Below are positions 3-4,583 of a stretch of DNA of 64,000 nucleotides, piece by piece. Source of the DNA: a virus. The notes beneath the pieces are model-generated. The model did not search any database. It saw only the letters and a list, made by a program, of their open reading frames with translations, and was not told the DNA's origin. Every line of letters begins with the position of its first letter. The stretch's first letter is position 1. A program made the translations under genes and the position numbers. The stretch spans positions 1-64,000 of the IMG/VR virus record IMGVR_UViG_3300023178_000019. One strand, 5' to 3'.

Positions 3-338
3 GTGGAGATATTGTTGTTGCACATTTAATAAATCATTTTCAGTAATTGTTACAGTGAACTGACCTTTGGTAGCAGTTGTGGAGCCATCGTCTTGTACTG
101 TGCAATCTCTTTCAATAATCTTTACATTGTTTTCATCAAACACAACCAACACTGGTGTTGTTGTAATTGTTACAGGCTTTTGATCTGCATTAAGCAATCT
201 AAACTGTAATTGATTGTCTATCCCTCTATAAACTTTTAATTGTCTACTATACACTGGTCTATACTCCACAACGAATCCTATATCGTTTGATACAACATCA
301 ACTTTGTTTTCATATAAATATCTAGGTATAAGTTGCAT
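3..338 (-). CDS. Hypothetical phage protein, 3' end runs off the window (MQLIPRYLYENKVDVVSNDIGFVVEYRPVYSRQLKVYRGIDNQLQFRLLNADQKPV...)
   Basis: Not in ORF track; manual translation from ATG at 338 is open to the window edge; AAGGA SD and TAAATA box (367-372) upstream. Confidence 0.7.
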   Translation of the reverse strand, partial: MQLIPRYLYENKVDVVSNDIGFVVEYRPVYSRQLKVYRGIDNQLQFRLLNADQKPVTITTTPVLVVFDENNVKIIERDCTVQDDGSTTATKGQFTVTITENDLLNVQQQYLH

Positions 339-380
339 ACAAAAAGGATCCTTAATTTATTTAAAGTATTTATCGCTAAT

Positions 381-752
381 ATGTTATTAAAAGATATAGA
401 AAAAAACTTTCCTTATATTTCTGTCGTCACATATGGTGGACAAGAATATGTAGGAATCATTTCCAATCAAGATCAGTACATTACATCTATGTATGTGTAC
501 ACTAATCTCCGATCTGAAGATGAGCGTAAAGCTTTTTTAGAACTGGGTGATATATGGTGGTGGGAATCTAACAGGATGATACCAATTAATATATTTTTGA
601 GAAAAGACATAGAACCTTTTAGACATGCACTCATAACAATGAATAGCAAAGATGTCAAGGTTACAATTGGCCCTTGTGTTAATTTAAACAACCTTGCAAT
701 AAAACGTGTAAAACGCAAAAGTGTACAGCTAGTTAAAAAACCTAGATCTTAG
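381..752 (+). CDS. Hypothetical phage protein
   Basis: ORF 333..752; ATG at 381 (MLLKDIEKNFPY) avoids overlap with the divergent gene. Confidence 0.7.
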   Translation: MLLKDIEKNFPYISVVTYGGQEYVGIISNQDQYITSMYVYTNLRSEDERKAFLELGDIWWWESNRMIPINIFLRKDIEPFRHALITMNSKDVKVTIGPCVNLNNLAIKRVKRKSVQLVKKPRS

Positions 753-768
753 TAAACCAAACGTTTCT

Positions 769-1332
769 TTAGTAGCCATTGAGTTGCTCACACAATAAGT
801 TCATATGTACAACACATGCTATAGCATATGATACAGCATGTGCTTTTTTAAAATAGTATTCACCGTTTTCAGGTTTGATCCAGACTTCTTTTAGTATCGT
901 CTGCCAGTCCTTGTCCGCTAGGTGTCTTTTTGCCGGACGAATTATCGCCAGTGTCGCTGCCAATTGTTCTACCGATGTAGGCTTCAATTGTTTCAACAGA
1001 CTGCTGTGCCCGCTTAGATGAAAGACTTGATCTACGAATTCTTCGTGCTCCAATAGTTCCCATAGTGGTTCCTTTTGCATGAGACTCATTAAATGTGTCT
1101 CATCTTGGATGTCTTTGTATATAGACACATTTAAAAAATCTAATTTAAAATAACCTCTGTCTTCGGCGTTTTTGTAGTCGATAGTAGATAGGTTATCCAC
1201 AGGGTTGTGAGGAATTTCTGTAACATAGACGCCGGTGTTGTGTTTCTTTTCACTATCAAGTTTAGCAACACGGTGTTGTATCTTTGACAACACAATGTCT
1301 CTGTCTGCAAAATCTATGTCAATATCTGGCAT
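769..1332 (-). CDS. dnaE: Miniature DNA polymerase III alpha (C-family) catalytic-core protein
   Basis: Ordered DnaE motifs PDIDIDF, HNTGVY (cf. HAGGVV), KLDFL, AIIRP (cf. ALxRPG), YYFKKAHAVSYA (cf. YGFNKSHAxxYA). Confidence 0.85.
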   Translation of the reverse strand: MPDIDIDFADRDIVLSKIQHRVAKLDSEKKHNTGVYVTEIPHNPVDNLSTIDYKNAEDRGYFKLDFLNVSIYKDIQDETHLMSLMQKEPLWELLEHEEFVDQVFHLSGHSSLLKQLKPTSVEQLAATLAIIRPAKRHLADKDWQTILKEVWIKPENGEYYFKKAHAVSYAIACVVHMNLLCEQLNGY

Positions 1333-2033
1333 TATAGATTACTTTCTTTTGCAACATCTTTAACAAGCTGCACATCACTTGGTTTTCTTTTAAATCGCAT
1401 AGCCCAATGTTCAGGGTTAATAACGTGATAAACAAGATTTAATTGTTCGTCATTAAACTTACTTAACATGTCTTTTCCGCTTTTACAATTAAGTAATAGC
1501 CAAGGCGATATCTTTCCGTCTTTAATATGCCACACTGCTCTATTTAAACTAACATAATTAAAATAATGATTCCATGCAGCAGGCTCATTTTCTTCTGCCC
1601 AATCCATCATTGTTTTTACACTACGTTCAAGTGCAGTAGCAACATCTTCTTTAAGAATAAATTCTAGTGCATACTTTTCGTACAGTTCATCTCGTGCCCA
1701 GTGATCTAACTTGACACCGCTTGTAACCACATAATCGATATATCGCTCAGGATATAAAGGTTTGACATTGCTAAGAAAACTGCCAAACTTAACAAAAGCA
1801 TTATAATAGGGGCTTGCACAAAAATCTTCATATGTTTTTTCTTTCTTAGTTCCTGCACTGAGTTTGTAAAATCGTTGAAAGGCATAAAAGCCGTACCTTA
1901 CTCGCTTTTCATCTTTTTGTAAAGAACGTCTCTTCTTTTCACACATATGAGCTGCAAGAGTCTTTTCTCGCATATAACCATTGCCGCAGTATTCGCATTT
2001 GTATGGTTTATCAGAGCTTGACGTCAACGTCAT
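1332..2033 (-). CDS. Hypothetical protein with N-terminal C2H2/C2HC-type zinc finger
   Basis: KPYKCEYCGNGYMREKTLAAHMC; ATG at 2033 overlaps the end of the upstream gene. Confidence 0.7.
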   Translation of the reverse strand: MTLTSSSDKPYKCEYCGNGYMREKTLAAHMCEKKRRSLQKDEKRVRYGFYAFQRFYKLSAGTKKEKTYEDFCASPYYNAFVKFGSFLSNVKPLYPERYIDYVVTSGVKLDHWARDELYEKYALEFILKEDVATALERSVKTMMDWAEENEPAAWNHYFNYVSLNRAVWHIKDGKISPWLLLNCKSGKDMLSKFNDEQLNLVYHVINPEHWAMRFKRKPSDVQLVKDVAKESNL

Positions 2034-2478
2034 GTTCTTCAGCCAATTGTTTGAGTTCTTTTTTTGTAGATAGTCTAGCAAGTAATTCTACCTCGTCTTG
2101 TTTCATATTCGGATATATTTCTTCTAATAATTTTATTGCTTTCGAATTAGATTCGGTTTTCTTTTTAAATCCAATGTATGGATGGAATTCTATTTTTCCA
2201 GTTGCTCCGCTCATGCACAATAGTTGCCACATCAGTTCTTGATGACCGGTTTCTTTGCCTACACCGATTGTATTAAAATGTTTGTTATAGTACTTATTTG
2301 TGTTTTCTATTGCACGTTCTTGTTTTTCTCTGTTGCCAGCAACATTACTAACGTATCTATTAAGTAACCAAAAGCCTACACTCTTTTTTTCTTCGTCAGT
2401 AAATTCTTTCCAGGCTCCTTTGTAGTTCATATCTATACAGCCAAGTATTTGTTTTAGATTAAGTTTTTCTTGTGCCAC
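2011..2478 (-). CDS. Probable clamp-loader small subunit (T4 gp62-like)
   Basis: Size and FWLLNRYVS...TNKYYN...KLLEEIYP...LSTKKEL pattern resemble gp62-like proteins; replication context. Confidence 0.5.
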   Translation of the reverse strand: MAQEKLNLKQILGCIDMNYKGAWKEFTDEEKKSVGFWLLNRYVSNVAGNREKQERAIENTNKYYNKHFNTIGVGKETGHQELMWQLLCMSGATGKIEFHPYIGFKKKTESNSKAIKLLEEIYPNMKQDEVELLARLSTKKELKQLAEEHDVDVKL

Positions 2479-3143
2479 TCTTCTGCATCCTCAGGTGTGT
2501 TTATCTCTGTACCATTAAATTGTACACTCAAACAGCCTATTTGCCAACCGTTTTTTAACCAACGCAATTGTTCTAATTGCTCAATTCTTTCCTCTTTAGG
2601 TATAGGCATATCTTGATAACATTGTAAAGCGTTTTTACTATATCCATAAACGCCTAAATGCCATTCGCCATACCCTGTCATACCTCTACCAAACCATAAT
2701 GCATTGTCTCCTGCACGTATCATTTTTACACTGCTAGGATCATCTTGCTTTGCTTCAGGCATATTAGTAAACACTGTGCTTACATTATAATGTTGTAAAC
2801 TAAAAATACATTTGTCTATCATTTCCTTTGTTACGTCTGGCATGTCACCTTGTACATTTATAAAATTATCGTACTCATCAAACTTACGACTAGCAATTGC
2901 TCCGGCACATCTTTCGGTACCGTTTTCATAATCATGTGAATCTATATAAATGCCTACACCAGATGCTTGTGCTGCCTGTGCAATAGTTTTGTTATCTGTT
3001 AGCACATAGGTATCATACCCTGTTGCTTTACAAGCTTCTGCTACTCGTTGTATCATAGGTTTATCCCCTAACATAGTCAGAGGCTTTCCTGGGTATCTTG
3101 TGCTGCCGTATCTAGCGGGAATAAGAATGGCTGATGATGTCAC
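2454..3143 (-). CDS. kdsB: CMP-Kdo synthetase (3-deoxy-manno-octulosonate cytidylyltransferase)
   Basis: IPARYGSTRYPGKPL, GTER, INVQGDMP, HLGVYGY, EQLEQLRWL, INTPED. Confidence 0.95.
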   Translation of the reverse strand: MTSSAILIPARYGSTRYPGKPLTMLGDKPMIQRVAEACKATGYDTYVLTDNKTIAQAAQASGVGIYIDSHDYENGTERCAGAIASRKFDEYDNFINVQGDMPDVTKEMIDKCIFSLQHYNVSTVFTNMPEAKQDDPSSVKMIRAGDNALWFGRGMTGYGEWHLGVYGYSKNALQCYQDMPIPKEERIEQLEQLRWLKNGWQIGCLSVQFNGTEINTPEDAEEWHKKNLI

Positions 3144-3873
3144 GTACTACCTCCTCAAAGTTTTTTAACTTCAACATATTAGGCCCATCGCTTGGTGCAT
3201 TGTCTGGATCAGCATGTACTTCTAAAAAGAAGCTGTCGATGCCCAAAGCAGAAGCAGCACGAGTAAGACCTGGAACGAAATCGCGATTGCCTCCACTTGA
3301 AGTGCCGTTTCCACCCGGCTTCTGTACCGAGTGGGTAGCATCCAATACAATGGGAACGTTATAATTAGTGAGCATATAGTCAAGCCCAGTAAAATCAACA
3401 ACCAGGGTATTATAACCAAAACTTGTACCTCTCTCTGTTATCCATACTTCTTTAGCACCTTCTGTTTTACTTAGTATTCCTTTGACATCCCACGGTGCTA
3501 GGAACTGCCCTTTTTTAATATTTACAATACAGTTTGTTTTACAAGCGGCTTGTATTAAATCTGTTTGACGACATAAGAATGCAGGTATTTGTAAAACATC
3601 TACAATGTCTTTTAGATACTGTATTTGATCTACTTCATGTACATCTGTTAGTGCTTTTACATTTAGTTCGTCTTTTAGCGCAAGTATGTCATGCACAAAT
3701 GGGTGTAAGCCTACCCCACGTTTGCCTGTTACGCTTGTACGATTTGCTTTGTCAAAACTTGCTTTAAAGTAGTAATCAATTCCATACTTGTCGCACACAC
3801 GTTTACACTCACGTGCAATCTCTGCACTCTGTGCTAGTGTTTCGTGTTGGCAGGGTCCTGCAATAATTCTCAT
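3112..3873 (-). CDS. kdsA: Kdo-8-phosphate synthase (metal-dependent type)
   Basis: IAGPC, KASFDKANRTS, IPAFLCRQTDL, KKGQFLAP, ERGTSFGY, DATHSVQ, PSDG; GGAG SD before ATG 3873. Confidence 0.97.
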   Translation of the reverse strand: MRIIAGPCQHETLAQSAEIARECKRVCDKYGIDYYFKASFDKANRTSVTGKRGVGLHPFVHDILALKDELNVKALTDVHEVDQIQYLKDIVDVLQIPAFLCRQTDLIQAACKTNCIVNIKKGQFLAPWDVKGILSKTEGAKEVWITERGTSFGYNTLVVDFTGLDYMLTNYNVPIVLDATHSVQKPGGNGTSSGGNRDFVPGLTRAASALGIDSFFLEVHADPDNAPSDGPNMLKLKNFEEVVRDIISHSYSR

Positions 3874-4583
3874 ATTATTCTCCAATTTTTAGGATTTGAC
3901 AAAGCTCGATTGTAACTGTTTATATTTTCTTTTTTAGTATACAACATGTCGCCCGCTACACAAAAGCGGCTTTGTTGCAATGATTCTTTATTTGTAAATG
4001 TTTTTCCTTCTTCATATTTGTCGCCTTGTCGTTCTTCAATACAATGTTTTAACTTAGACGGAAATATAAAAAGAGAACCTTCTGTTATAGGAAATGAAAT
4101 AATATTACTGTTTATAGACGTCCATTCAGTAATATAGTTACTAAAAAAATGTGCATAAGGTTCGTTAGCATGAGCTTCATTAAAATTATAAATCATAATA
4201 TCTCTATCTTTTCCGTTAGCAATAAAAGGATAATAGGTAAAAGAAATATGATTTTCGGAATGGTCGTGAACATCAATACCACTCTGATTAGTAACATTAA
4301 AAAAGCACTTAGTTAGATGTACATCAAGGGTGTCTGCATTTATATTAAGACATTTAAAATATTCATTGATACTAATTTTTAATTTGTTCATTAATAGATC
4401 ATTAAATATTGTTTCATTTTGTATATTTTCAAATCCAATAAAGTCTTGAGACCTACCTTCATTGTTAGAATTTTTTAAGTATAAATCAAACCAACAGTCT
4501 TTTTCCTTATCTGTAACAGTGTGTAATGTTTCAGATACTACAGTAGGAAATATTAAATGATTATTTACAATCAATTGTTTCAT
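3870..4583 (-). CDS. Putative 2OG-Fe(II) oxygenase-like protein
   Basis: HDH...ISFTYY...EGSLFIFPSKLKH...R pattern. Confidence 0.65.
   Translation of the reverse strand: MKQLIVNNHLIFPTVVSETLHTVTDKEKDCWFDLYLKNSNNEGRSQDFIGFENIQNETIFNDLLMNKLKISINEYFKCLNINADTLDVHLTKCFFNVTNQSGIDVHDHSENHISFTYYPFIANGKDRDIMIYNFNEAHANEPYAHFFSNYITEWTSINSNIISFPITEGSLFIFPSKLKHCIEERQGDKYEEGKTFTNKESLQQSRFCVAGDMLYTKKENINSYNRALSNPKNWRII

Follow-up and report, generated by a model that had tools for sequence, protein, structure and literature searches.

A minimal split DNA polymerase III alpha has been described from sequence for the group 2.2 jumbo phages RaK2, PA5oct and Atu_ph07 by Iyer, Anantharaman, Krishnan, Burroughs and Aravind (Iyer et al. 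2021, Viruses 13:63, PMC7824862). In these phages the split polymerase accompanies a family B polymerase, and a role in the synthesis of one strand or in repair was suggested for it (Iyer et al. 2021, PMC7824862). Records in GenBank and RefSeq label both halves "DNA polymerase (III alpha)". In the literature searched, including a jumbo-phage review and a survey of bacterial polymerases that both date from 2026, we found neither a bench test nor a later treatment of the split enzyme.

A family-C polymerase whose halves come from genes far apart is also familiar from cyanobacterial DnaE (dnaE-n and dnaE-c), where a split intein ligates the two products into full-length DnaE. The canonical family-C core is a single chain comprising a palm with the GS motif, a thumb and fingers, and it is covered by the Pfam families PF07733 and PF17657. 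In E. coli Pol III alpha the residues D401, D403 and D555 form the catalytic triad (Timinskas et al. 2014, PMC3919608). The position of D405 is occupied by Asp in all DnaE groups and by Asn in PolC (PMC3919608).

The window analyzed here is a stretch of 64,000 nucleotides, the first 64 kb of a 98.5-kb viral record in IMG/VR with a CheckV completeness of 28%. Since 98.5 kb represent 28% of the genome, the source is an uncultured marine jumbo phage with a genome of roughly 350 kb. The gene under study, referred to as the C-unit gene, is located 769 bases from the end of the fragment. Its product is the C-terminal, Mg2+- and template-binding unit of the split Pol III alpha of Iyer et al. The gene, its motifs and its two neighbors are arranged in the window as follows.

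1332 to 2081, minus strand: gene of a 249-aa protein with a C2H2-like zinc finger (phrog_11058), upstream of the C-unit gene, stop and start codons overlapping as TAATG
769 to 1332, minus strand: C-unit gene, 187 aa, trimmed fingers and catalytic Asp half of a split minimal Pol III alpha
1309 to 1329, minus strand: PDIDIDF motif, residues 2–8, invariant in 81 sequences
1228 to 1242, minus strand: HNTGV motif, residues 31–35, on a palm strand (model strand E30–36), H31 and G34 conserved in at least 90%
1132 to 1146, minus strand: KLDFL motif, residues 63–67, invariant
928 to 945, minus strand: IIRPAK fingers motif, residues 130–135, R132 and P133 invariant
823 to 858, minus strand: YYFKKAHAVSYA fingers helix, residues 159–170, K162 and H165 conserved in at least 90%
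333 to 752, plus strand: 139-aa open reading frame (phrog_11637), convergent and immediately downstream of the C-unit gene

The original prediction, made from the letters of the window, had read the 187-aa frame as intact, coupled to its upstream gene, opening at PDIDIDF and retaining HxxGV, KLDFL, RP and YxFxKxHAxxYA in this order together with all three catalytic Asp positions. All of this is seen in the window. The frame at 769–1332 is uninterrupted, its N-terminus reads MPDIDIDF, and its ATG shares the A with the TAA stop codon of the upstream gene. The five motifs follow the order known from DnaE. Structural and HMM alignments equate D3, D5 and D7 of PDIDIDF with D401, D403 and D405 of E. 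coli. In the HMM alignment to residues 539–641 of E. coli alpha, K63 and D65 correspond to K553 and D555, the latter being the third catalytic Asp. IIRPAK is aligned with the FRPG motif at 638–641 of E. coli alpha, and the YYFKKAHAVSYA helix with YGFNKSHSAAYA at 754–765 (both by HMM). The C-unit accordingly shares with bacterial DnaE (E. coli 2hnh and 5fku, T. aquaticus 3e0d, M. tuberculosis 5lew) the Pol-beta-like palm strands, the equivalents of D401, D403, D555 and K553 and, in the same order, the FRPG and FNKSHAxxYA motifs of the fingers.

The window copy is 37–55% identical to the copies of RaK2, 121Q, PA5oct and Atu_ph07. It agrees with the published split polymerase in its length, its start at the catalytic motif and its gene neighborhood. 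In relatives of the window phage the agreement extends to a distant gene for the N-terminal half (referred to as the N-unit) and to the presence of a family B polymerase (PolB). No essential difference was found; the window copy belongs to an uncultured marine lineage and its partner lies outside the fragment. The novelty implied by the original prediction has to be withdrawn: the split arrangement was published in 2021 (PMC7824862) and is already known from sequence analysis, to which the window gene adds a further copy, from a marine lineage in which the family is abundant. The value of the present case lies in confirmation and in two supporting observations, a natural fusion and strong purifying selection.

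The C-unit matches PHROG 11778 ("DNA polymerase", 197 positions) with an E-value of 3.9e-62 (residues 3–183 on profile positions 8–194). In the Pfam search the C-unit alone reached no gathering score. The fingers family PF17657 stayed below threshold (17.4 bits, gathering cut-off 22), and there was no match to PF07733. The canonical single-chain core is thus not contained in this protein. A phmmer search of PDB sequences resulted in three collinear pieces on M. tuberculosis DnaE1 (413–423, 568–665 and 773–787), and a profile of 81 homologues hits DnaE chains only (E. coli 539–641 and 741–767). An AlphaFold2 model of the C-unit, calculated on the alignment of 81 homologues, has a mean pLDDT of 96.6 and a pTM of 0.88. 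It consists of a half-palm together with fingers. The palm, for which an incoherent active site had been considered beforehand, is coherent in this model. All 15 of the top 15 Foldseek matches in the PDB are Pol III alpha or PolC. The C-unit is a real derivative of DnaE.

The 187 residues cover about 380 residues of DnaE (E. coli span 400–781), about 200 of which have no counterpart. As had been proposed, the protein is internally deleted rather than truncated: according to structural and HMM alignments, the thumb and fingers stretches have shrunk inside the chain. The counterpart of E. coli ~433–538 (thumb and adjoining palm) is reduced to ~15 residues, and that of 642–740 (fingers) to about a dozen. 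The C-unit ends at the equivalent of approximately residue 781 of the E. coli protein, with nothing beyond. In contrast to DnaE it is devoid of PHP, thumb, distal fingers, (HhH)2, clamp-binding motif, OB and tau-binding domain, and its palm is split between two polypeptides, with the GS motif located on the other protein.

A structural alignment with PolC (G. kaustophilus, 3f2b) resulted in 15% identity, whereas 24–28% were obtained for the DnaE proteins of T. aquaticus and M. tuberculosis. PolC was not found by the sequence profile of the C-unit and carries Asn at the D405 position, where the C-unit has Asp. Because D7 is Asp, the identity to DnaE is higher and the profile finds DnaE only, the comparison places the C-unit nearer to DnaE than to PolC. 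There is also a weak hint that it arose by reduction from a DnaE-type ancestor, rather than representing a form older than both DnaE and PolC; an ancestral form has been proposed by Iyer et al.

Conservation was analyzed in 81 full-length homologues that are 29–87% identical to the window protein. The residues D3, D5, D7, K63, D65, R132 and P133 are invariant (81 of 81), and H31, G34, K162 and H165 are conserved in at least 90% of the sequences. The start MPDIDIDFA is found in 74 of 87 C-unit homologues. For the analysis of selection, 78 of the 81 coding sequences were usable (product longer than 170 aa, no stops); these are marine copies. The Nei-Gojobori dN/dS has a median of 0.13 and a maximum of 0.26 in 620 unsaturated pairs (dS from 0.05 to 1.5). 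The homologues, for which relaxed selection or pseudogenisation had been raised as a concern, show neither, and the C-unit gene is real and under purifying selection.

These data also bear on the idea of a DnaE remnant, decaying or non-catalytic, that would owe its retention to a structural or regulatory function. More than 80% of the DnaE length has been lost, and the failure of the C-unit to pass any Pfam domain threshold would fit such a remnant. We nevertheless regard it as extremely unlikely, because the catalytic residues are invariant down to 29% identity, dN/dS amounts to 0.13, intact sequences of uniform length make up at least 8000 clusters (90% identity), and the confidence of the fold prediction is very high. 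The possibility that a frameshift in a long DnaE left this gene as a remnant was considered separately and rejected: the frame ends cleanly, and 79 of 87 copies from the loci have a uniform length of 185–190 aa.

The missing half of the palm was expected from a separate N-terminal ORF of the GRGS type. Such an N-unit was indeed found in relatives of the window phage; on its own, 28%-complete record it was not. The N-unit has about 185 aa and ends with ...GVGRGSS...EFLR, the point from which DnaE continues into PDIDIDF. In the phages Phosso and PAC2 it ends with ...VWGVGRGSSVASYVL(F/Y)LIG(V/I)H...(E/D)EFL(K/N)-stop. DnaE runs on past this end point (...ERFLNPERVSMPDID...) into the motif that opens the window protein. 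In the complete relative Phosso the N-unit (177 aa, PF07733 with E = 8e-13) is encoded far from the C-unit, and in Pseudomonas phage PAC2 (PA5oct-like), likewise a complete relative, the N-unit of 169 aa (PF07733 with E = 4e-10) is located at a distance of 44 kb. It is also present, distant from the C-unit, in two of five long marine relatives (G001 and G003). In G001 the N-unit (185 aa, L085:1393–1947) lies at ~6 kb and the C-unit (L023:4001–4555) at ~232.6 kb of a 236-kb contig; in G003 the respective positions are 183 kb and 61 kb. The N-unit of G001 scores 42.7 bits against PF07733 (cut-off 23.9, profile positions 19–94 of 260).

Searches of the window phage's own 98.5-kb record with PF07733, with the PAC2 N-unit, by tblastn with two N-units and by a scan for G.G[RK]GS gave nothing credible; since the record is a 28% fragment, this absence says little. 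The partner is therefore inferred from relatives that are 74–81% identical in the C-unit. Downstream of the N-unit, a conserved protein of ~113–153 aa and then a Cpn10/GroES-like gene are encoded in G001 (L085:1978–2765), PAC2 and Phosso. The Cpn10/GroES-like gene of G001 matches PF00166 with 27.4 bits.

In the collection of cultured phages, 96 records contain the C-unit and 99 the N-unit. The tallies by host (C-unit/N-unit) are Escherichia 34/34, Pseudomonas 11/11, Klebsiella 11/10, Erwinia 8/8, Salmonella 8/8, Xanthomonas 4/4, Yersinia 4/4 and Agrobacterium 2/2. The N-unit matches listed include four records of Clostridium/Clostridioides phages with 35.6–36.4% identity over 41–49% of the query; these hosts are absent from the C-unit tally. 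In metagenomes each of the two halves forms at least 8000 clusters at 90% identity.

The C-unit of the window was modeled in complex with the N-unit of the relative G001, not with that of its own phage. Folded alone, the N-unit reached a mean pLDDT of 61 (shallow alignment). The complex resulted in an ipSAE of 0.92, compared with 0.24 for the best of three controls, and thus passes the check with a partner that had been suggested beforehand. In the calibration, 58 of 80 complexes with solved structures attained this mark, as did 2 of 110 mismatched pairs. The contacts agree by at least 97% across three runs, and the pLDDT of the partner is at least 87. In the model, residues 6–8 of the C-unit (the Asp strand) are in contact with residues 150–151 of the N-unit (the strand preceding GRGS), as in a Pol-beta-like palm. 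The predicted complex supports binding of the two units. The pass may stem from similarity to DnaE structures rather than from binding, because both chains are halves of a fold that has been solved many times as one chain.

A natural fusion of N-unit and C-unit was found in P0223, a metagenome protein of 375 aa from ENA. Its residues 23–180 are 35% identical to the N-unit of G001 (E = 3e-28), and its residues 190–369 match the window protein (E = 4e-26). A single alignment to PF07733 runs unbroken through the junction (residues 97–207, profile positions 12–121, 59.6 bits), and the halves are joined by a linker of ~9 residues (…KEFIK-DNKEGIYNI-ADFDIDT…). As a singleton, encoded on an ENA contig of 2.4 kb, P0223 counts as one observation. 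An in-frame chimera at exactly the junction is unlikely. The protein could have retained an ancestral, unsplit state or have arisen by secondary fusion. No further fusions of this kind were found in IMG/VR, and a metagenome scan for fused forms yielded only one conventional long DnaE of 933 aa, whose PHP domain is encoded by a separate ORF, and one weak match.

A search for longer relatives of the C-unit had P0121 (ENA, 425 aa) as its only match. It was rejected as an unsplit polymerase, as its C-unit part is without PDIDIDF. Its N-terminal region of ~280 aa, fused in frame to the C-unit, contains reverse-transcriptase-like motifs as judged by eye. This region matched no Pfam family at E = 0.1, and the precomputed record lists PF28514. 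P0121 is encoded on a 1.4-kb contig and may have arisen by insertion of a mobile element into the gene or by chimeric assembly.

It is conceivable that the C-unit acts alone or with other partners, for example the zinc-finger protein, that the N-unit has a separate function, and that the DnaE ancestry is only historical. The genes of the two units are never adjacent, which would agree with this, as would the translational coupling of the C-unit to the zinc-finger gene in the window and the conserved neighborhood. The Pol-beta-like palm, however, is incomplete without the GRGS half. Together with the near-identical phyletic distributions of both units, the natural fusion and an interface that is predicted with confidence, this makes independent functions of the two proteins very improbable.

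We consider it likely that the product of the gene is the C-terminal half of a minimal family-C core that consists of two chains, is rejoined non-covalently and serves as a distributive accessory polymerase. The earlier proposal of one subunit of a split, miniaturised polymerase with the partner encoded elsewhere is supported by the N-unit of the relatives, the dN/dS of 0.13 and the published description. In the proposed enzyme the C-unit chain would supply the metal-binding strands (D3, D5, D65), K63 and a trimmed fingers bundle (R132, K162, H165). The second protein of ~185 aa, whose gene lies at a distance of tens to hundreds of kb, would contribute the other half of the Pol-beta-like palm, and its GRGS loop would hold the triphosphate. 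The chains would associate non-covalently, without rejoining by an intein or intron, the strand preceding GRGS pairing with the PDIDIDF strand. The single active site rebuilt in this way would add nucleotides to a 3'-OH. The enzyme would be without PHP, thumb, HhH/clamp-binding and OB domains and would be accompanied by a PolB replisome of the T4 type. Should the two units prove active together, the minimal working core of the bacterial replicase family would come down to ~370 residues in two chains, with the active site of a polymerase formed at the interface between two proteins.

An intein-split gene was rejected: the N-unit ends with EFLR-stop and the C-unit begins with M-P-D. There is no room for split-intein halves at either terminus, so any association of the two chains must be non-covalent. 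As in cyanobacteria, the halves of a family-C polymerase come from two distant genes; unlike cyanobacterial DnaE, the C-unit and the N-unit are without intein halves, and the cut lies inside the palm.

The protein encoded upstream of the C-unit contains an N-terminal C2H2-like zinc finger (YKCEYCGNGY...HMC) and is a candidate DNA-binding partner. A search of the ESM Atlas with this protein gave no usable match. The zinc-finger gene and the 139-aa ORF both accompany the C-unit in G001–G003, PAC2, Phosso, Atu_ph07, Vibrio phage 2.275 and RaK2, and in all eight the 139-aa ORF is the next gene downstream of the C-unit. At the locus of XacN1, the ninth relative compared, neither phrog_11058 nor phrog_11637 was detected. 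One to three small ORFs are sometimes inserted between the zinc-finger gene and the C-unit in relatives. In PAC2 the 3' ends of the C-unit gene and the 139-aa ORF overlap by 17 nt. In complete phages the block containing the C-unit is located between UvsW and a gp61/gp41-type primase and helicase; in the window this side of the block runs off the contig.

The original prediction had considered a T4-like replisome that normally uses a family B polymerase. The relatives G001, G003, PAC2 and Phosso encode a PolB of ~825–1013 aa; on the window phage's own 98.5-kb record (28% complete) neither PolB nor PHP was found. A PHP domain gave no match above the Pfam cut-off in G001, G003, PAC2 and Phosso. 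In the PAC2 record the PolB match at 202949–206726 is distributed over two open frames (825 aa and 379 aa), and the family B polymerase of this phage may be encoded in two pieces.

Since thumb and DNA-/clamp-binding modules are absent and a T4-type PolB replisome is present alongside, we infer that a distributive accessory polymerase (repair, gap filling, primer extension) is more likely than a main replicase. The absence of a thumb and of clamp- and DNA-binding domains also renders templated, processive synthesis uncertain. The two chains might instead form an active nucleotidyltransferase that is not a templated DNA polymerase; a repurposed nucleotidyltransferase or primer-synthesis enzyme had been the second option of the original prediction. 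Such an enzyme could act as a terminal transferase, synthesize short oligonucleotides or primers, or use modified nucleotides. Without thumb, HhH, OB and clamp-binding region, only a Pol-beta-like core with partial fingers is left, and primase and helicase genes are found within a few kb in RaK2, PAC2, Phosso and Atu_ph07. Both observations would be compatible with such a transferase. On the other hand, the retained R132, K162 and H165 and the FKKxHAxxYA helix belong to DnaE fingers motifs beyond the metal site, and fingers of this kind probably exceed what a template-independent transferase would need. Overall, we regard a transferase as unlikely.

Returning to the two-chain polymerase, a more specific and rather speculative proposal can be made, to which we assign a limited chance. 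The thumb-less, two-chain mini-Pol III might be a fork enzyme that works with the neighboring primase and helicase. Its grip on DNA would come from another phage protein, e.g. the zinc-finger neighbor, and it would extend primers distributively before handing over to the phage PolB, similar to the transfer from DnaE to PolC in B. subtilis. If this were true, no smaller family-C polymerase would be known, and its active site would extend across two polypeptides. Given the very high abundance of the family in marine viral metagenomes, its function bears on the copying or repair of DNA in a large group of ocean phages.

Scans for promoters and terminators gave counts at the level of shuffled sequences. 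A terminator-like hairpin with a T-run was observed at 823–844 on the plus strand of the window, inside the 3' end of the C-unit gene, in a region where the counts of such hairpins are at chance level. It could end the transcript of the convergent 139-aa ORF. Further upstream, at 2454–3885 on the minus strand, the window contains a kdsB-like gene (229 aa) and a kdsA-like gene (257 aa), identified by eye. This pair precedes a 155-aa gene, the zinc-finger gene and the C-unit gene, and the same order is present in G001 (L023:1252–2668).
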